Below, in pieces: positions 1 through 18,211 of a stretch of 42,441 nucleotides of DNA. Every line of letters starts with the position of its first letter. Position 1 is the stretch's first letter. A program made the translations under genes and the position numbers. Below the pieces are notes generated by a model. It made no database searches. It saw only the letters and a list, made by a program, of their open reading frames with translations, and was not told where the DNA came from. This DNA comes from Escherichia coli (GTDB lineage: Bacteria > Pseudomonadota > Gammaproteobacteria > Enterobacterales > Enterobacteriaceae): assembly GCF_003334385.1 (NCBI RefSeq), contig NZ_QOWN01000037.1; one strand, written 5' to 3'.

Positions 1-72
1 AACGCGAGGCATCGTCTTAACGAGGCACCGAGGCGTCGCATTCTTCAGATGGTTCAACCCTTAAGTTAGCGC

Positions 73-264
73 TTATGCATCTCTTCCCCTCTTGCCCTGT
101 TTGACCATCAGGACGCCGTTAACTATTGCGTGACGCTCGCCTTTGCTGTCTCTGTTGTACTTGAGCACTGTTCCTCTTGCGCAGGAAAGCATCCTCGCCA
201 CTTCGGTCTGATTGCCTCGTGTCTGGATAAGAAGCTCTGGTATCGTTTGAATCGTGGCGTTCAT
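73..264 (-). CDS. ninH: NinH protein
   Basis: 63-aa translation (IPELLIQTRGNQTEVARMLSCARGTVLKYNRDSKGERHAIVNGVLMV) closely resembles lambda NinH as I recall it; last nin gene before the Q side. Confidence 0.7.
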   Translation of the reverse strand: MNATIQTIPELLIQTRGNQTEVARMLSCARGTVLKYNRDSKGERHAIVNGVLMVKQGKRGRDA

Positions 265-623
265 ACGTTCTCCAGTTCGGTGATTTTTATTCCAAGCCTT
301 CCGCCTGGTACTTTCACACCACGAATTACGCGAATGTCATCGAATTGCTCGTCGTCTTCCGCAAATCCGGCGTGGATAAGGGAGTCGAGTAAACCCTTCA
401 GGATGTTATCGAGGTCGCGGCGGCGGGAGTCTGGAACGTCTGCGATGACTTTGATGCGGAGTCTTGATTTGGTGAAAATGTCTAACTTGAGTTGGCGGAT
501 GATTTGCTGAACGTCTTTTCGGTATTTCTGGCCTTTATCGCTGATGTAGTATTGGCTTCCCCGTCTTCGCCAGTAGGTGTTCACCGACGGCGGGTAAGGA
601 AGCACAAACTGATATTCGTTCAT
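261..623 (-). CDS. rusA: RusA-family Holliday junction resolvase
   Basis: 120 aa with the RusA-like core (RRRDLDNILKGLLDSLIHAGF...DDEQFDDIRVIRG); start overlaps the upstream stop. Confidence 0.8.
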   Translation of the reverse strand: MNEYQFVLPYPPSVNTYWRRRGSQYYISDKGQKYRKDVQQIIRQLKLDIFTKSRLRIKVIADVPDSRRRDLDNILKGLLDSLIHAGFAEDDEQFDDIRVIRGVKVPGGRLGIKITELENV

Positions 624-910
624 GGCTTAATCTTCCCCTCCTTCAGCAGGATCGCCTGCGTCCTGATCACGCCTTCGAGGTGATAAAGTCTGGCGTCTTT
701 GTTGTCGAGATTATGGGTGCGTCGGTCGATTTCATCGTGACACGCGCTACAAGCCCATGCGCCGATCAGGTCGTCAGGCTTCATTCCCGTTCCGCAAATT
801 CCAGCCATCCGGTAATGTGCCAGAACTGTAGTTTCAGGATTACCATTGCATATTCCGTAAATACGTACCTGGCATTCTCTGCCGCGTGCTTCTTTGCGTA
901 GGTTAGCCAT
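620..910 (-). CDS. Cys-rich nin-region protein (DUF1364-like)
   Basis: 96-aa ORF with several Cys pairs (CQVRIYGIC...GICGTG...CSAC), translationally coupled to its neighbours; family assignment is from memory only. Confidence 0.5.
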   Translation of the reverse strand: MANLRKEARGRECQVRIYGICNGNPETTVLAHYRMAGICGTGMKPDDLIGAWACSACHDEIDRRTHNLDNKDARLYHLEGVIRTQAILLKEGKIKP

Positions 911-1179
911 TATGGTTCACTCCAGTAATTCTCAATTGCAGCAGCCATTCTCTGCATCCACTCAGCCAGCTTTAACGCGGCTTCTCTTTCAGAACCACAT
1001 TTAGGGAAATCCTTCATTTCCATGCTGGCCTTATATGTTCTGAATGCCAGGTCTCCGGTAATAACCAACTCCTGATCAAGCACCGAGCGTTTATTCCGGT
1101 GTTGAACGTAATAGACAGATTCAGTCCGCATTTCTTCTCTGTCTTTTTTGAAGGAAATAAGCTCAGAGAAATCACTCAT
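910..1179 (-). CDS. Hypothetical nin-region protein
   Basis: 89-aa ORF whose ATG overlaps the ninF stop (ATGAGTGA); no recognisable motif. Confidence 0.5.
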   Translation of the reverse strand: MSDFSELISFKKDREEMRTESVYYVQHRNKRSVLDQELVITGDLAFRTYKASMEMKDFPKCGSEREAALKLAEWMQRMAAAIENYWSEP

Positions 1180-1348
1180 CGTCTTCTTCCTCGTACATTG
1201 AGCTATTCGGATCGCTCATCAGTTCTGCGCAGCAGTGCTCACACACATGAACTTCCAGCACATGCAGCTTCTGACCGCAGTTAGCGCACGTTAAAGCCCG
1301 CTCGACGCTTTCTTTCTGGTATTGAAGGGATTGGGATGGGCTAAGCAT
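1172..1348 (-). CDS. ninF: NinF protein
   Basis: 58-aa ORF absent from the 60-aa-minimum track, translated by hand: MLSPSQSLQYQKESVERALTCANCGQKLHVLEVHVCEHCCAELMSDPNSSMYEEEDDE, matching lambda NinF as recalled. Confidence 0.75.
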   Translation of the reverse strand: MLSPSQSLQYQKESVERALTCANCGQKLHVLEVHVCEHCCAELMSDPNSSMYEEEDDE

Positions 1349-1700
1349 TATTGGCGTCCTGCATCATGAGAAAGACAATCATGGCAGCACGGAGTGGGTT
1401 TTCATCTTGAGTCATATGATATGGGGTACTATCACTGCCAACTTTTCTATGCGCTGCCTTCCATAATCCATTTTCTGGCGCTGGAATAATGCCAATTCTG
1501 TTCTCTACGATAATCGGCTCTGCGTCTGATGGGCTTTTACAGTAATCAACCGTTTTTATTGCATAACCAGTTTCGTCATCCCACTCAACACCAACGATTG
1601 ATGTTCCCAACTTTGCGATTTCGCAATCTTCGGGAGCAAATCCACAGCAAATTGCCACTCGCTTGTTAATTTCAAAATCACTTAATTGTGAATAATCCAT
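1341..1700 (-). CDS. Hypothetical protein at the ninE position
   Basis: Track ORF 1341..1742; the ATG at 1700 has GAGG 8 nt upstream, giving ~119 aa (alternative starts at 1706 or 1742). Not lambda NinE. Confidence 0.5.
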   Translation of the reverse strand: MDYSQLSDFEINKRVAICCGFAPEDCEIAKLGTSIVGVEWDDETGYAIKTVDYCKSPSDAEPIIVENRIGIIPAPENGLWKAAHRKVGSDSTPYHMTQDENPLRAAMIVFLMMQDANNA

Positions 1701-1845
1701 TGTCATTTCCTCGCACGATGTCTTAGCCACCGGATATCCCACAGGTGAGCCGTATAATTGAAGGTTTTTACGTCAGATTCTTTTGGGATTGGCTTGCGTT
1801 TATTTCTGGAGCGTTTCGTTGGAAGGTATTTGCAGTTTTCACAGA

Positions 1846-2019
1846 TTATGTCGGTGATACTTCGTCGCTGTCTCGCCACACGTCCTCCTTTTCCTGCGGT
1901 AGTGGTAACACCCCTGTTGGTGTTCTTTCACACCGGAGACACCATCGATTCCAGTAAGGTTGATTTGGTCGGAAGCGGTTATCTTCTTTGCATTCACCGC
2001 ACCGATAACATCGCATCAT
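1846..2019 (-). CDS. ninD: NinD protein
   Basis: [57 protein letters not shown]; the ATG overlaps the ninB stop (ATGATG). The track ORF extends further upstream, but coupling favours the 2019 start. Confidence 0.75.
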
Positions 2020-2456
2020 GCTGCCCGATCTCCCCATCGCGCTTTCCATTCGAGAGCCAGTCGCGCTTCGTCTGACCACTTAACGCCACGCTCTGTACCG
2101 AATGCCTGTATAAGCTCTAATAGCTCCGCAAATTCGCTTACACGCATCCTGCTGGTTGACTGGCCTATTACCACAAAGCCATTCCCGGCAAGGTTAGGAA
2201 CAACGTCCTGCTGCTTTAATGCTGCTGTAAAAACGCACTTCCAGCTTTCTGCATCCAGCCAGCGACCATGCCATTCAACCTGACGCGAAACGTCACCAAG
2301 GCAAGCCCAAAGCTTCCGATTTTGGTCTAAGCTGCGGTTGCGCTCCTGAATGGTTACTACGATTGGTTTGGTTGGGTCTGGAAGGATTTGCTGTACTGCG
2401 TGAATAGCGTTTTGCTGATGTGCCGGAGATCGAATTTCAAAGGTTAGTTTTTTCAT
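2016..2456 (-). CDS. ninB: NinB recombination protein
   Basis: Translation from [56 protein letters not shown] matches lambda NinB as recalled; track ORF 2016..2474 has a slightly upstream alternative start. Confidence 0.85.
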
Positions 2457-2484
2457 GACTTCCCTCTCCCCCAAATAAAAAGGC

Positions 2485-2512
2485 CTGCGATTACCAGCAG
2501 GCCTGTTATTAG
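2485..2512 (-). terminator. Rho-independent terminator (tR2-like) between the replication genes and ninB
   Basis: Minus strand reads AGGCCTGC-tggtaatc-GCAGGCCT followed by TTTTTATTT; same position as lambda tR2. Confidence 0.6.
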
Positions 2513-2533
2513 CTCAGTAATGTAGATGGTCAT

Positions 2534-4414
2534 TTAATACTCCGTCACGTTTTCCTGTCGCCACGCCTCGTCATATTCCGATTTCGGCATATTGGCGATG
2601 TAGCTATAAGGCGATCCTGATTCAAGTTGCAGGAACTGGTGCGATTGCTCGTCAAGGAACAACGGGACACCACCTTCCCAACCTTCGCCGTTACGTTGTT
2701 TTTCAAGCATCAAAACAGATGCCGGAGATGCCAGTAGCTGTTCGTCCTTCTCTGACATCTTTTCACCACTCTGAACTCTCTGTAACGCTCTCTCGCGAGC
2801 CTTGTTACGCCAGATGATGAAAAGGTTGTCTGTCAGGTCTGTTATCGCTCCAGAGCCTTTTACGTCCATTTTCCCGGTTGGTTTTTCTTCGCTGTCTCCT
2901 TTTCGCGAGTGAGTAACGAGAATGACGTGGGAGTTTGTTTTGTTTTTGAAGTCGCAAATCAAGTCAACAAACGCCTTCTGCCCGTTATAGTCATCGTCGC
3001 CTATGCCACATTTCATCAGGCTGTCGATGATGAATAACTGGATCCCGTATCGGCGGCGAGCGTAGTCGAATATTTCGATCAGCCTGTCGGCTTTCGCCGT
3101 TCCGGTCAGGCCAAACACCCAAAGTCTTTCGTCATAAAATTTAAATGCAGAGTCAATTTCCAGCACTGGCGGCATCTTGCAGCACGTCGCCTGACGGGTA
3201 AGGCGCTTAAGGAGAATACCAGGCTTCAGCTCAAGTGACGCGATGCACGTCTTCACACCCTGACGCATTGCCTCAAGTGCCATATGCCCGACAACCTCCG
3301 TTTTTCCGTGACCGTTCACACCATTGACCAGCGTCAACTCGGCCTCACGGAACTGGAATTTATCTGCCAGAGATTCCCACGGTGGATTAAACAGATACTG
3401 CTGCTTGCCGTAGAAAGCGTTGATAGTGTCCTGGTAAAACTCTCGCGCGCTGTAGAGTTCTTCAGGATCGAAGTAGGATGCCGTGCCGATGTACTGCCAG
3501 ATTTCATCCTCGGTAACACCGTTCATCAGGCATTCGTTGATGTCTTTGTACGGCAGAGTAACAAGACGGCAACGATGTTCACCGAGTCGGCTTGCGATTT
3601 CCCTTGCGGCTTCACGACCAACATCATCAACGTCCATCGAGATGAATATTTCCTCAAACCTGTCGAGGTTGTGATACTCAAACTCAATCCACTGTTGCTT
3701 AGCGCCTTTCCCGCCACCAAACGGCACGGATAACGCCGAGATGCCGTATTGCGCATAGCTCATACAATCAATTTCGCCTTCGCAAAGTACAACCGCCCTC
3801 ACGCCAGCGTCCAGAGCCTGCCATCCGAACAGACAAGGTTCACAATCACCTTCTGCCATAATGACTTTCTTCCCGTCCGGGCGCTCAGTGCTGATTCGCT
3901 TGACCTGCAACAACTCACCATCGCGTTTGTACGGAAGCACCAGTGCATCAAGTTCTCGTTCTCCATTCCACACCTTGCCGCTGACAACCTCGTAGCGCTT
4001 TACGACTTCTGGCGATATGCCACGCGATTGCAGGTACTCAAGATGGGATTCTGTTCTGGTAACGTAGCGGGCGATTTTCTTGCGGTCAGGTCTGGAGAAT
4101 TTCTTCTCACGTTTGGCATCGAAATGGTGATCGTCATCCTTGATTCCGAGAAAGGCTTTCGCTTCCTGCATAGCCTGATGCAGGTTAATTCCTCGACATG
4201 CCATCCACAAATCAAGCATGTCACCGCCGTCCCCCTCAGCGAAATCAGCCCATTTTTTCTTGCCGCTAAGGTTGACCTTAAGGCTGTTTCCCTTGTCACC
4301 GTTGACGTTACCGGCAACCCACTCATGCCCCTCTTTCTTGCCGTTTGGCAACAGGTGCGGAGCCACCCTGTCAACCTGCGCCCAAAGCAGGTCGCTAAGT
4401 TCACTTGGCCTCAT
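2534..4414 (-). CDS. Replicative primase-helicase (N-terminal TOPRIM primase fused to C-terminal DnaB/SF4-like P-loop helicase)
   Basis: 626 aa; TOPRIM-like LCEGEIDCMS followed by DVDDVG; Walker A GVNGHGKTE and Walker B-like LFIIDSLMK in the C-terminal half; GAGGG RBS; sits where lambda P would be. Confidence 0.7.
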   Translation of the reverse strand: MRPSELSDLLWAQVDRVAPHLLPNGKKEGHEWVAGNVNGDKGNSLKVNLSGKKKWADFAEGDGGDMLDLWMACRGINLHQAMQEAKAFLGIKDDDHHFDAKREKKFSRPDRKKIARYVTRTESHLEYLQSRGISPEVVKRYEVVSGKVWNGERELDALVLPYKRDGELLQVKRISTERPDGKKVIMAEGDCEPCLFGWQALDAGVRAVVLCEGEIDCMSYAQYGISALSVPFGGGKGAKQQWIEFEYHNLDRFEEIFISMDVDDVGREAAREIASRLGEHRCRLVTLPYKDINECLMNGVTEDEIWQYIGTASYFDPEELYSAREFYQDTINAFYGKQQYLFNPPWESLADKFQFREAELTLVNGVNGHGKTEVVGHMALEAMRQGVKTCIASLELKPGILLKRLTRQATCCKMPPVLEIDSAFKFYDERLWVFGLTGTAKADRLIEIFDYARRRYGIQLFIIDSLMKCGIGDDDYNGQKAFVDLICDFKNKTNSHVILVTHSRKGDSEEKPTGKMDVKGSGAITDLTDNLFIIWRNKARERALQRVQSGEKMSEKDEQLLASPASVLMLEKQRNGEGWEGGVPLFLDEQSHQFLQLESGSPYSYIANMPKSEYDEAWRQENVTEY

Positions 4415-4518
4415 GATTCCCTCAGATTGAGATTTTTAAACCAGAAATCGACAAACGAAATACTTAACCAGCCGTGGTTATAACCAGCGACCAGTAACGA
4501 TTTGATTTTTGATTTCAT
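4411..4518 (-). CDS. Small coupled ORF (35 aa) between O and the primase-helicase
   Basis: MKSKIKSLLVAGYNHGWLSISFVDFWFKNLNLRES; AGGTG RBS inside the O 3' end; its stop overlaps the primase-helicase ATG (ATGA). Below the track size cut-off. Confidence 0.35.
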   Translation of the reverse strand: MKSKIKSLLVAGYNHGWLSISFVDFWFKNLNLRES

Positions 4519-4521
4519 GGT

Positions 4522-5382
4522 TCACCTGTCGAAAAACACGTAGCCTGTTTTCGATACGGTGATTGCGGATGATGGTTTGGATTGTGGTTGAATGGTTTCT
4601 GGCTTCTCGTCGTTCCAGCGTTGACCGTTCAGGTAGCTCGATGGTAACAACCTGTCGAATCCGAACTGCTTACCATTCCTGCATGCGATGTCTTCTGCCA
4701 GCATCGTGGCAAACTCGCTTGCCGTACCCCTGGTAGTTTTACGCCATTCCCTGAACTGTGTTCTGAATGCCGAAGCTGCGTTTTTCTTCCCGGCCTTCCG
4801 CATGCCTGCACACCAGAATATTTCCTCGAATGCCTTGTCGGTTTCTTCGTGACGGTCAGGTGATTTTTCACACTCCGTCCGAACACTTTCGGACATAGTG
4901 TTTTTATTATTTCTTTTTTCTTTTGTAATAGTTTCTTTTGTGTGTCCCTGTTTTGGTGACAGCGCTGTCACCGTTTTGGTGACACTTTTTGTCACCAATG
5001 CAGTGACATTATCACCAGAGTAGTGACACCCTTCGATTTGCCATTCCTCGATGTTCTTGTTAGGCCCGATTTGCTGGCCTTCGCGAAGGATAACCTTCAT
5101 CGCGATAAGCTCATTCTTGGCCTTGTTTACCTTCTGTCTTGGCAGCCTGGTAATTTGAGCTAACTGACTATCAGAGATGCGATCCATCTTTTTACCGTAG
5201 CCGTATGTTTTACGGCATATGGCGTGGGCAACCTTGCTCTGATTTTTCGTTAAATCTGCGCCGATAAGCTCTTCATACAGGGCATTTGCAAGACGGGTAT
5301 AACCATCTTCAACTTCTGCCACACGACGCTCCACAGGCCGTTGTGAAGGCCTTAAATGTGTTACGGTTGCAAGATTACTCAT
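4522..5382 (-). CDS. O: Replication initiator O (lambda-O-like N-terminal domain, divergent C-terminal domain)
   Basis: N-terminal region ([56 protein letters not shown]...GPNKNIEEW) parallels lambda O; iterons lie inside the gene. Confidence 0.8.
4895..5031. repeat. Phage replication origin inside O: four iterons plus adjacent AT-rich region
   Basis: GGTGACAGCGCTGTCACC (4955-4972), GGTGACACTTTTTGTCACC (4978-4996), GTGACATTATCAC (~5003-5015) and GTGACACC (~5023-5030) at ~23-bp spacing, each with internal dyad; AT-rich stretch 4895-4940. Same organisation as lambda ori. Confidence 0.7.
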
Positions 5383-5521
5383 GACCTTTCTCCTTCTGCA
5401 TCAGCTTCACTTTTTCCAACTCAGCCCGGAATCGACCAGGCTGCTTGAAGCTGGACAGGAAGCGATCACGTAGTATGTGTTTGTGAATTTTGTCCTGGTA
5501 AGGACTGAGTTGTTTTGTCAT
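5375..5521 (-). CDS. Small basic protein (48 aa) between cII and O
   Basis: [48 protein letters not shown]; GGAG RBS 5 nt upstream; its 3' end overlaps the O start by 8 nt. Confidence 0.4.
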
Positions 5522-5555
5522 AATTACTCCTGTGGATTGATCCAGTCTTTCTACA

Positions 5556-5834
5556 TCAGGCCTCGAAGAATTCGCCGTTCTTCGGGGCTTTTTCTTTTGT
5601 CAGCATTCTGGCTACTTTCTTAGCCAGTTCCGCCAACTCCTCGTCTTCAACACCCCATTCAAGAACAGCCAGAAGCATTCCCATTTTTGGGATGAAGCTG
5701 TCTTTCCATCGCGAAATTTGCGATTCATTAATCCCTAACGCGTCGGCAACCTTTCGCTGACCACGTACAGCAATTCGATTCAGGATGTTGCTTGTAATTG
5801 CATTCGCTTTCTTGCGAGTACTTGTAAGTTGCAT
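5556..5834 (-). CDS. cII: CII transcriptional activator
   Basis: 92 aa with the lambda-CII-like core ([42 protein letters not shown]); located after cro and nutR. Confidence 0.85.
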
Positions 5835-5892
5835 ATGTAAGTATTTCCTTAACTAATAAGAAGTTATGCGCATCAACTTATGCGCGTTGTAT

Positions 5893-5938
5893 TCCCGCAT
5901 TTCGGCGGGAATGAGGACCATGACTGTTAAAGAGCGGT
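5893..5938 (-). promoter_or_regulatory. nutR (boxA plus boxB hairpin)
   Basis: Minus strand carries CGCTCTTTAACA (boxA) then a TCCCGC-CGAAAT-GCGGGA hairpin (boxB); the same elements recur at nutL. Confidence 0.7.
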
Positions 5939-5942
5939 GTTA

Positions 5943-6143
5943 CTATTTGTTTTTCTTGTTGCTTGGGAAAGGACGAACTTCCTCTCCAATCACACTGCCA
6001 TCAGGCTTTACCGTAACCATAATGTTACGGCCTGCCAGAATGGCCTTGCTGATAGCGCACTGGATTACACCAAAGTCACTGGCTGCTTTAGCCTGTCCAT
6101 GGATTTTGGCGTAATCGGCAAGTGTCATTCGAATCATATGCAC
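5943..6143 (-). CDS. cro: Cro repressor
   Basis: 66 aa ([58 protein letters not shown]) close to lambda Cro; the true start may be the second ATG at 6137. Confidence 0.85.
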
Positions 6144-6165
6144 TCTCCGTTATTAACCATGAACA

Positions 6166-6233
6166 AAGAATACTACAGGTATTCAAAGCAATCAATACTC
6201 AGGGTATTTTTAGTTTAAGTACCTTAGCTATTA
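6166..6233. promoter_or_regulatory. oR/pR/pRM region: repressor operators with dyad AATAC-N5-GTATT
   Basis: AATACTACAGGTATT (6169-6183), AATACTCAGGGTATT (6194-6208), weaker AGTACCTTAGCTATT (6218-6232), centres ~25 bp apart; minus-strand pR candidate -35 TTGATT and -10 TATTCT overlap the first two sites. Confidence 0.6.
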
Positions 6234-6243
6234 GAATTAAGCT

Positions 6244-6960
6244 ATGGAAAATAAAAAATCACTGACGACAGAACAGCTCGAAGACGCTAAGCGGCTTAAG
6301 GCTTTGTATGAGTCAAAAAAGAAAGAATTGGGAATAACCCAATACTCAATCGCTGATGAACTGGGTATCACCCAAGGAGCGGTAGGGCATTATCTTAATG
6401 GCAGAAACGCGCTAAACGTTGAGGTCGCATCTGGTTTTGCACGATTGTTGCAAGTCTCAATTGCTGATTTTAGCCAGTCAATTGCTGCCAAGGTTGCAGA
6501 ACAGGCAGAAAGCCTTAAGAGCGATGCCAACGTAAGGTATGCAGGGGAATACAGAGCAGGAAAGAGGTATCCGGTGTTAAGCAGTATCCAGGCTGGCTCG
6601 TGGTGTGAAGCATGCGAACCATACACCATTAAAGACATAGATGTTTGGCTTGAGTCTGACGCGCATATTCAAGGTAATGCGTTCTGGCTTAAAGTGGAAG
6701 GTGATTCAATGACGGCACCGGTTGGGTTAAGCATTCCAGAGGGAACATTCGTTCTTTTCGATACCGGAAGGGAGGCGATCAACGGCAGCTTGGTCATAGC
6801 AAAACTTTCTGACTCTAACGAAGCAACATTCAAGAAGCTGATAATCGACGGCGGAAATAAATACCTCAAGGGACTTAACCCTGCATGGCCTCTCGTGCCA
6901 ATCAATGGAAACTGCAAGATTATAGGCGTTGCAATTGAGACAAAACTAAGGCTGGTTTGA
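6244..6960 (+). CDS. cI: CI prophage repressor (HTH plus S24 LexA-like autopeptidase domain)
   Basis: 238 aa; parallels lambda CI in the N-terminal region (LTTEQLEDAKRLKALYESKKKELGITQ) and the C-terminal domain (FWLKVEGDSMTAP...FKKLI); the DNA-binding helix differs. Confidence 0.85.
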   Translation: MENKKSLTTEQLEDAKRLKALYESKKKELGITQYSIADELGITQGAVGHYLNGRNALNVEVASGFARLLQVSIADFSQSIAAKVAEQAESLKSDANVRYAGEYRAGKRYPVLSSIQAGSWCEACEPYTIKDIDVWLESDAHIQGNAFWLKVEGDSMTAPVGLSIPEGTFVLFDTGREAINGSLVIAKLSDSNEATFKKLIIDGGNKYLKGLNPAWPLVPINGNCKIIGVAIETKLRLV

Positions 6961-15745: not shown

Positions 15746-16793
15746 GCGCCGGGATTTACCCCCTAACCTTTATATAAGAAACAATGGATATTACTGCTAC
15801 AGGGACCCAAGGACGGGTAAAGAGTTCGGATTAGGCAGAGACAGGAGGATAGCAATCACTGAAGCTATACAGGCCAACATTGAGTTATTTTCAGGACACA
15901 AACACAAGCCTCTGACAGCAAGAATCAACAGTGATAATTCTGTTACGTTACATTCATGGCTTGATCGCTACGAAAAAATCCTCTCCAGCAGAGGAATCAA
16001 GCAGAAGACACTCATAAATTACATGAGCAAAATTAAAGCAATAAGGAGGGGTCTACCTGATGTTCCACTTGAAGACATCACCACAAAAGAAATTGCGGCA
16101 ATGCTCAATGGATACATAGACGAGGGCAAGGCGGCATCAGCCAAGTTAATCAGATCAACACTGAGCGATGCATTCCGAGAGGCAATAGCTGAAGGCCATA
16201 TAACAACAAACCCGGTCGCTGCCACTCGCGCAGCAAAATCAGAGGTAAGGAGATCAAGACTTACGGCTGACGAATACCTGAAAATTTATCAAGCAGCAGA
16301 ATCATCACCATGTTGGCTCAGACTTGCAATGGAACTGGCTGTTGTTACCGGGCAGCGAGTTGGGGATTTATGCGAAATGAAATGGTCTGATATCGTAGAT
16401 GGATATTTTTATGTCGAGCAAAGCAAAACAGGCGTAAAAATTGCCATCCCTACAACATTGCATGTTGATGCTCTCGGGATATCAATGAAGGAAACACTTG
16501 ATAAATGCAAAGAGATTCTTGGCGGAGAAACCATAATTGCATCTACTCGTCGTGAACCGCTTTCATCCGGCACAGTATCAAGGTATTTTATGCGCGCACG
16601 AAAAGCATCAGGTCTTTCCTTCGAAGGGGATCCGCCTACCTTTCACGAGTTGCGCAGTTTGTCTGCAAGACTCTATGAGAAGCAGATAAGCGATAAGTTT
16701 GCTCAACATCTTCTCGGGCATAAGTCGGACACCATGGCATCACAGTATCGTGATGACAGAGGCAGGGAGTGGGACAAAATTGAAATCAAATAA
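15723..16793 (+). CDS. int: Lambda-type tyrosine integrase
   Basis: 356 aa, MGRRRSHERRDLPPNLYIRNNGYYCYRDPRTGKEFGLGRDRRIAITEAIQANIELFSG... essentially lambda Int as recalled. Confidence 0.95.
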   Translation: MGRRRSHERRDLPPNLYIRNNGYYCYRDPRTGKEFGLGRDRRIAITEAIQANIELFSGHKHKPLTARINSDNSVTLHSWLDRYEKILSSRGIKQKTLINYMSKIKAIRRGLPDVPLEDITTKEIAAMLNGYIDEGKAASAKLIRSTLSDAFREAIAEGHITTNPVAATRAAKSEVRRSRLTADEYLKIYQAAESSPCWLRLAMELAVVTGQRVGDLCEMKWSDIVDGYFYVEQSKTGVKIAIPTTLHVDALGISMKETLDKCKEILGGETIIASTRREPLSSGTVSRYFMRARKASGLSFEGDPPTFHELRSLSARLYEKQISDKFAQHLLGHKSDTMASQYRDDRGREWDKIEIK

Positions 16794-16881
16794 TGATTTT
16801 ATTTTGACTGATAGTGACCTGTTCGTTGCAACAAATTGATAAGCAATGCTTTTTTATAATGCCAACTTAGTATAAAAAAGC
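16794..16881. other. attL: lambda P' arm plus 15-bp core, joined to the bacterial B arm
   Basis: Plus strand 16794-16866 is the reverse complement of the lambda attP P' arm (including AGGTCACTATCAGTCAAAAT arm sites); core TTAGTATAAAAAAGC at 16867-16881; followed by AGCAGG (complement of attB CCTGCT). Confidence 0.9.
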
Positions 16882-16927
16882 AGGCTTCAACGGATTCATT
16901 TTTCTATTTCATAGCCCGGAGCAACCT

Positions 16928-18211
16928 GTGAACACATTTTCAGTTTCCCGTCTGGCGCTGGCATTGGCTTTTGGCGTGACGCTGACCGCCTGTAGCTCAA
17001 CCCCGCCCGATCAACGTCCTTCTGATCAAACCGCGCCTGGTACCTCTTCTCGCCCGATTCTGTCGGCAAAAGAAGCGCAGAATTTCGATGCTCAACACTA
17101 TTTTGCATCCCTGACACCAGGTGCTGCAGCGTGGAATCCTTCCCCGATTACCCTGCCTGCGCAACCTGACTTTGTTGTCGGCCCGGCGGGCACTCAAGGT
17201 GTAACGCATACCACGATTCAGGCGGCGGTAGATGCGGCAATTATCAAGCGTACCAACAAGCGCCAGTATATTGCCGTGATGCCTGGTGAGTATCAGGGAA
17301 CGGTATATGTCCCTGCCGCTCCGGGTGGAATTACTCTGTACGGTACAGGTGAAAAACCGATTGATGTGAAGATTGGGCTTTCCCTTGATGGTGGCATGAG
17401 CCCTGCCGACTGGCGTCACGACGTCAACCCGCGCGGCAAATATATGCCAGGTAAACCAGCGTGGTATATGTACGATAGCTGCCAGAGCAAACGCAGCGAC
17501 AGTATCGGTGTTCTCTGCTCTGCGGTCTTCTGGTCACAAAACAATGGCCTGCAACTGCAAAATCTGACCATCGAAAACACGCTGGGCGATAGCGTAGATG
17601 CAGGTAACCATCCGGCGGTAGCACTGCGTACTGATGGTGACCAGGTACAGATTAACAACGTTAACATTCTCGGTCGTCAGAACACCTTCTTTGTCACCAA
17701 CAGCGGTGTGCAGAACCGTCTGGAAACGAATCGTCAGCCGCGTACGCTGGTGACCAACAGCTACATTGAAGGGGATGTGGATATCGTTTCTGGTCGCGGC
17801 GCAGTGGTGTTCGATAACACCGAATTCCGCGTGGTGAACTCACGTACTCAGCAAGAAGCGTATGTGTTTGCACCGGCTACGCTGTCCAACATTTACTACG
17901 GTTTCCTCGCCGTAAACAGCCGTTTCAATGCTTTCGGTGATGGTGTGGCGCAACTGGGCCGCTCGCTGGATGTTGATGCCAATACCAACGGTCAGGTGGT
18001 GATCCGTGATAGCGCCATCAACGAAGGTTTTAACACGGCTAAACCGTGGGCCGATGCGGTGATCTCTAATCGTCCGTTTGCGGGTAATACCGGCAGCGTA
18101 GATGATAACGACGAAATACAGCGCAATCTGAATGACACTAACTACAACCGCATGTGGGAATACAATAACCGCGGCGTGGGTAGTAAAGTGGTTGCAGAGG
18201 CGAAGAAGTAA
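16928..18211 (+). CDS. ybhC: Pectinesterase-like outer-membrane lipoprotein YbhC
   Basis: 427 aa, GTG start, lipobox LTAC; matches K-12 YbhC as recalled. Confidence 0.9.
   Translation: MNTFSVSRLALALAFGVTLTACSSTPPDQRPSDQTAPGTSSRPILSAKEAQNFDAQHYFASLTPGAAAWNPSPITLPAQPDFVVGPAGTQGVTHTTIQAAVDAAIIKRTNKRQYIAVMPGEYQGTVYVPAAPGGITLYGTGEKPIDVKIGLSLDGGMSPADWRHDVNPRGKYMPGKPAWYMYDSCQSKRSDSIGVLCSAVFWSQNNGLQLQNLTIENTLGDSVDAGNHPAVALRTDGDQVQINNVNILGRQNTFFVTNSGVQNRLETNRQPRTLVTNSYIEGDVDIVSGRGAVVFDNTEFRVVNSRTQQEAYVFAPATLSNIYYGFLAVNSRFNAFGDGVAQLGRSLDVDANTNGQVVIRDSAINEGFNTAKPWADAVISNRPFAGNTGSVDDNDEIQRNLNDTNYNRMWEYNNRGVGSKVVAEAKK

Follow-up and report, generated by a model that had tools for sequence, protein, structure and literature searches.

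Is a TTGC-N6-TTGT string that lies antisense to the first codons of a prophage cII gene the CII-binding site of the repressor-establishment promoter pRE, or is it merely a consequence of the amino acids encoded on the opposite strand? The question arises in a 42,441-nucleotide stretch of Escherichia coli DNA (assembly GCF_003334385.1, contig NZ_QOWN01000037.1), referred to here as the window, in which a preliminary description had proposed a candidate CII box of pRE within the span 5799-5835. Lambda CII binds TTGC-N6-TTGC at the -35 region of pRE. The string concerned, TTGCGAGTACTTGT, does exist and occurs only once in the window, on the plus strand at 5812-5825; it had been placed 12 nt away, at 5800-5813, and the additional TTGC reported at 5817-5820 is actually found at 5829-5832, with both elements falling inside the proposed span. 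The wider setting had been read correctly, in that the box is within the 5' end of cII (5556-5834, minus strand) and is oriented toward cI (6244-6960, plus strand). The identification itself is borne out by the annotation of the same bases in the phages HK244, Sf6 and HK620 and by the P22-type TTGT repeat. Judging from these sequence comparisons, we estimate a probability of about 0.9 that 5812-5825 is the CII site of pRE. It is not a new feature: HK244, Sf6 and HK620 have the identical site in their annotation, and that of P22 is its equivalent.

The prophage and its probable CII targets

The window contains a mosaic lambdoid prophage with its rightward operon on the minus strand. The genes of this operon include a primase/helicase-like gene (2534-4414), an O-like replication gene (4522-5382), cII (5556-5834) and cro (5943-6143, the likely true start being the ATG at 6137), all on the minus strand, while the cI repressor gene occupies 6244-6960 on the plus strand. 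The cII region is 98-99.7% identical to those of mEpX2, HK620, HK630 and others. Its product, the 92-residue protein predicted to recognize the box, belongs with the CII-like activators of PHROG 191 (E=2e-37), matches the lambda CII structures 1XWR, 1ZS4 and 8IGR (E=2e-23), and contains an SQISRWK stretch that is common to P22 C1 and lambda CII. On the plus strand a 14-bp hairpin with a T-run (5558-5600) overlaps the 3' end of cII, where P22 has its annotated terminator for the oop antisense RNA. A scan of 5300-6400 against Rfam recovered no family above threshold; the best match, ctRNA_p42d, was rejected as sub-threshold, with 19 bits against a gathering score of 50 bits.

A further CII box, TTGCGTGTAATTGC, is present on the plus strand at 15501-15514, just upstream of lambda-type xis and int genes, and is the box of the pI (int) promoter; the stretch that begins with it and extends into the start of xis is base-for-base that of lambda. 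Given this lambda-identical pI box, the prophage would have at least two CII targets. Only one other perfect TTGC-N6-TTGC box occurs in the window, at 5788-5801, and is taken up below. No candidate for a paQ box was found in 1-5000. The region 15437-18211 comprises xis and int of the lambda type, int being at 15723-16793, followed by an ORF at 16928-18211 that looks like a host, non-phage gene; accordingly the prophage would give way to host DNA close to 16.85 kb, everything beyond that point in the window being of host origin.

Architecture of the predicted promoter

The box, of the P22 C1 type, occupies 5812-5825 on the plus strand and is antisense to cII codons 4-8, which encode T-S-T-R-K (cII nt 10-23). 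Its two repeats enclose a nominal -35 hexamer, GAGTAC (5816-5821), which matches TTGACA at only 1 of 6 positions, and therefore the promoter is predicted to need an activator. A -10 hexamer, AAGTAT (5839-5844), identical to that of lambda pRE, begins after a further 13 nt; it is situated between the cII start codon and the ribosome-binding site and is followed in the window by TTCC. The predicted transcription start (+/-1 nt) is 5851 on the plus strand, the A that ends TTCCTTA 7 nt past the -10; it was transferred from the position of the lambda pRE start, which we take to be equivalent. A generic sigma-70 promoter scan at the box found no consensus promoter, as is expected because pRE is activator-dependent, and the scan is thus uninformative on activity. 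The order of genes provides the plus-strand path from pRE, antisense through cro and into cI, and 5851-6244 on that strand contains no terminator-like site before cI. Taken together, the box, -35 and -10 elements, position, cognate activator with its conserved helix-turn-helix and conservation of the putative promoter all fit the CII/C1-dependent pRE promoters of lambdoid phages.

The TTGC that trails the box at 5829-5832 is the complement of the G of the start codon and the Gln2 codon CAA. It was considered as a component of the site and rejected: its distance of 7 nt from the TTGT is the wrong spacing, and it must lie outside the site because it reads TTCC in alleles with Glu2.

Comparison with annotated relatives, P22 and lambda

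Three phage records mark the same bases, although these depositor annotations are themselves similarity-based. The HK244 record (EF120457) has a "CII binding site at pRE" that maps to 5812-5825 of the window, with its minus_35_signal at 5816-5821 and its minus_10_signal at 5839-5844; the CII site in the Sf6 record (AF547987) likewise corresponds to 5812-5825, and the pRE of the HK620 record (AF335538) to 5811-5850. In all three phages the box, spacer and -10 are base-for-base the same as in the window, leaving no difference inside the promoter, and the CII proteins are 99-100% identical to that of the window, the HK244 protein being 100% identical. Downstream of the start the relationships diverge in a mosaic fashion, the window being HK620-like whereas Sf6 and HK244 are lambda-like. 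The mosaic breakpoint is located in 5849-5870, approximately at the predicted pRE start; beyond it the window and HK620 read CCTTAAC..., and Sf6, HK244 and lambda read CCTTAGATAAC....

The CII-type site at P22 pRE has been studied experimentally, and the P22 C1 target is reportedly the subject of Ho et al. 1992 (J Biol Chem 267:14388). In the P22 record (NC_002371, 32045-32058) this site is labeled "P22 C1 protein, activation of P RE" and its pRE strand reads TTGCGAGTGCTTGT. A statement in PMC2629481, citing Ho et al. 1992, gives TTGCN6TTGC/T as the target of both P22 C1 and lambda CII. Because the P22 C1 site and this published target both carry TTGT, the imperfect repeat is the normal P22-type form and no defect; the preliminary description was right to call the second repeat imperfect, but its doubt on that ground falls away. 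P22 and the window have in common the TTGC-N6-TTGT form, the TTGT as the proximal repeat, the codons T-S-T-R-K and the 13-nt spacing to the -10, and P22 C1 is 86% identical to the window CII. The differences between them are a single base of the N6 spacer (GAGTAC in the window, GAGTGC in P22), the -10 hexamer (the lambda-type AAGTAT in the window, GAACAT in P22) and the upstream region, where the window has a second, perfect box and P22 has CTGC-N6-TTGC. Another paper, PMC12111858, describes the P22 C1 site as TTTCN6TTGT, contrary to the TTGCGAGTGCTTGT of the P22 record. Natural single-mismatch variants of the box comprise TTTC-N6-TTGC (locus L277), TTGC-N6-TTTC (locus L282) and, in two phages, TTGC-N6-TTGA.

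With lambda, whose pRE CII box is TTGCGTTTGTTTGC, the window shares the architecture of the promoter, and no base differs between the two over the interval that runs from the cII start codon, across the -10, to the predicted start (CATATGTAAGTATTTCCTTA). In contrast, lambda has TTGC as its proximal repeat where the window has TTGT, and the two differ in the spacer and in the N-terminal peptide of CII, the CII proteins being 50% identical overall. The element as predicted from these comparisons is a pRE box of a P22 C1-type activator joined to a lambda-type -10.

Conservation of the box beyond the protein sequence

For a view across more distant relatives we assembled a divergence series of 19 CII/C1 loci from a phage collection, spanning 35-100% protein identity; the 80 closest viral-contig loci are too similar for a test of constraint. 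In 14 of the 19 loci the box occupies cII nt 10-23, or 13-26 if the protein has one additional residue, and 2 more have TTGC-N6-TTGA. Among the 13 loci tabulated for spacing, 11 have the box, and in every one of these (11/11) a 13-nt spacer leads to an xAxxxT hexamer and then to the complement of the cII ribosome-binding site. This register and the 13-nt spacing are kept across about ten types of CII N-terminal peptide, the residues over the box varying widely (TSTRK, ANKRN, ATTRN, ATKSK, AIKRN, AKYRK, ATYRK, ARARK). Despite these peptide differences the codons over the box always give [A/G/T]CAA...GCAA: Arg is invariably encoded by CGC, the triplet used for 17% of Arg residues in this prophage, and the first codon has the form xCA throughout. 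Under the codon usage of this prophage, the probability of obtaining the box-making codons given the peptide is 0.02-0.09 per lineage, and because the needed choices are this improbable, selection acts on the DNA. The joint probability would be about 1e-11 if the lineages were independent, a value that overstates the significance and is to be taken as its upper bound because the lineages share ancestry.

At closer range, the repeats are invariant in 63 HK620-type and 80 P22/HK620-type loci, in which only the N6 spacer varies, and one natural R7S change (CGC to AGC) retains the TTGC. The box is also kept in all unique sequences of the ST64T type (31/31) and in 16/18 of those of the Erwinia type, the 2 exceptions being single-mismatch variants. 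Since the box lies inside cII codons 4-8, these codons are constrained at the DNA level.

Several Erwinia-type loci (L268, L271, L272 and L273, as well as L097 from Erwinia phage vB_EhrS_49) have a second perfect box, TTGCGTGAC[A/T]TTGC, on the pRE strand. It is found ~50 nt downstream of the main box, at cII nt -44 to -27 in L268, L271, L272 and L273, within the spacer separating cro from cII, and shares bases with a GTGAC...GTCAC hairpin. In HK140 (NC_019710, locus L087 314-679) the RefSeq cII CDS begins 87 nt before the conserved ATG and crosses the nutR boxA annotation; this is probably an over-extended gene call.

Alternative explanations and the second box

Frequency by itself does not distinguish the box. 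When both strands are counted, the window has 6 copies of TTGC-N6-TTGY, where shuffles lead one to expect 6.69 +/- 2.5, and 2 of the perfect TTGC-N6-TTGC, against 3.49 expected; as neither form is enriched window-wide, the motif alone is no evidence for a site. The occurrence of this motif class at the chance rate is what one would predict if the box were a chance TTG-rich coding motif, or a side effect of conserved amino acids at the CII N-terminus, that has no function at the DNA level. The composition of the region is also in keeping with such an origin: the 45-nt stretch is TTGY-rich owing to its K/N/T/S/A codons, and R or S followed by K or N is common in CII N-termini. However, the peptide does not explain what is conserved, since differing peptides leave the tetranucleotides in place, in the same register and 13 nt from the -10, the Arg and first codons over the box keep to CGC and xCA, and the R7S replacement leaves the TTGC intact. 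We therefore regard an origin by chance or from the peptide alone as very improbable. The position of the box is non-random: antisense to the opening 60 nt of cII, 0.0037 boxes are expected and two are seen (P about 7e-6).

The other of these two boxes, overlooked in the preliminary description, is the perfect TTGCTTGTAATTGC (TTGC-N6-TTGC) at 5788-5801 on the plus strand, 24 nt upstream of the canonical box and thus at about -63 to -50; it corresponds to cII nt 34-47 and the codons A-I-T-S-N. With its perfect match to the lambda consensus, its difference from the pI box by just one spacer base, and variation within HK620-type alleles that is confined to a synonymous A/G polymorphism in the spacer, it might be proposed as the real or primary CII site in place of the imperfect box. 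Yet the hexamer at the invariant 13-nt spacing from it would be CGAGTA, which is without A2 or T6, and we rejected it as an independent promoter for want of a -10 at the required distance. Further, it is present only in cII alleles of the HK620/Sf6/HK244 type, P22 and ES18 reading CTGC... at the same position and every other CII type compared being devoid of it, and all the depositor annotations choose 5812-5825. That the upstream box is the primary site hence appears to have hardly any likelihood. A less extreme proposal, which we consider unlikely, is that both boxes are used, with a second tetramer modulating pRE in HK620/Sf6-type phages through cooperativity, as a local reservoir or by competition with the alpha-CTD. 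The excess of boxes noted above, here two within 38 nt, accords with it, and so does the second perfect box near pRE in some Erwinia-type phages, though that one is downstream. Set against this, an offset of 24 bp means that the two sites face different sides of the helix, only one clade carries the upstream box, polymorphism is too scarce for constraint to be demonstrated, and the pairing is a post hoc observation in a TTG-rich coding stretch. That the HK620/Sf6/HK244-type pRE has two tandem CII sites, at -39 to -26 and at about -63 to -50, is accordingly a doubtful proposition, and the upstream box is most likely a by-product of the coding sequence. The reading we prefer is that of 5812-5825 as the CII site of pRE.

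Proposed mechanism and biological implications

By homology with better-known lambdoid phages, transcription from pR would pass cro and nutR/tR1 and express cII (5834 to 5556). Once accumulated, the CII tetramer would be expected, on the model of lambda CII and P22 C1, to bind the TTGC at 5812-5815 and the TTGT at 5822-5825, which are one helical turn apart and flank the very poor -35 GAGTAC. Bound in this way, CII might help the sigma-70 RNA polymerase to use the -10 AAGTAT and to start near 5851 on the plus strand. The resulting transcript would run antisense through cro into its downstream target cI, and is predicted to yield the surge of repressor by which lysogeny is established, at the same time counteracting the expression of cro and cII. 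The same CII should also fire pI at 15501-15514, and would in this manner lead to the production of integrase.

The box would mark the establishment promoter of the lysogeny switch of this prophage, a result of little import beyond correct annotation. If the tandem arrangement were true, a second CII tetramer would adjust how cooperative the lysis-lysogeny switch is or at what threshold it operates. The locus also brings together in one mosaic genome a P22 C1-type activator, a lambda-type -10 and a lambda pI box. Finally, it appears to offer an example of a regulatory site that sits within the gene of the activator to which it responds and thereby limits, in many CII lineages, the codons that can be used.
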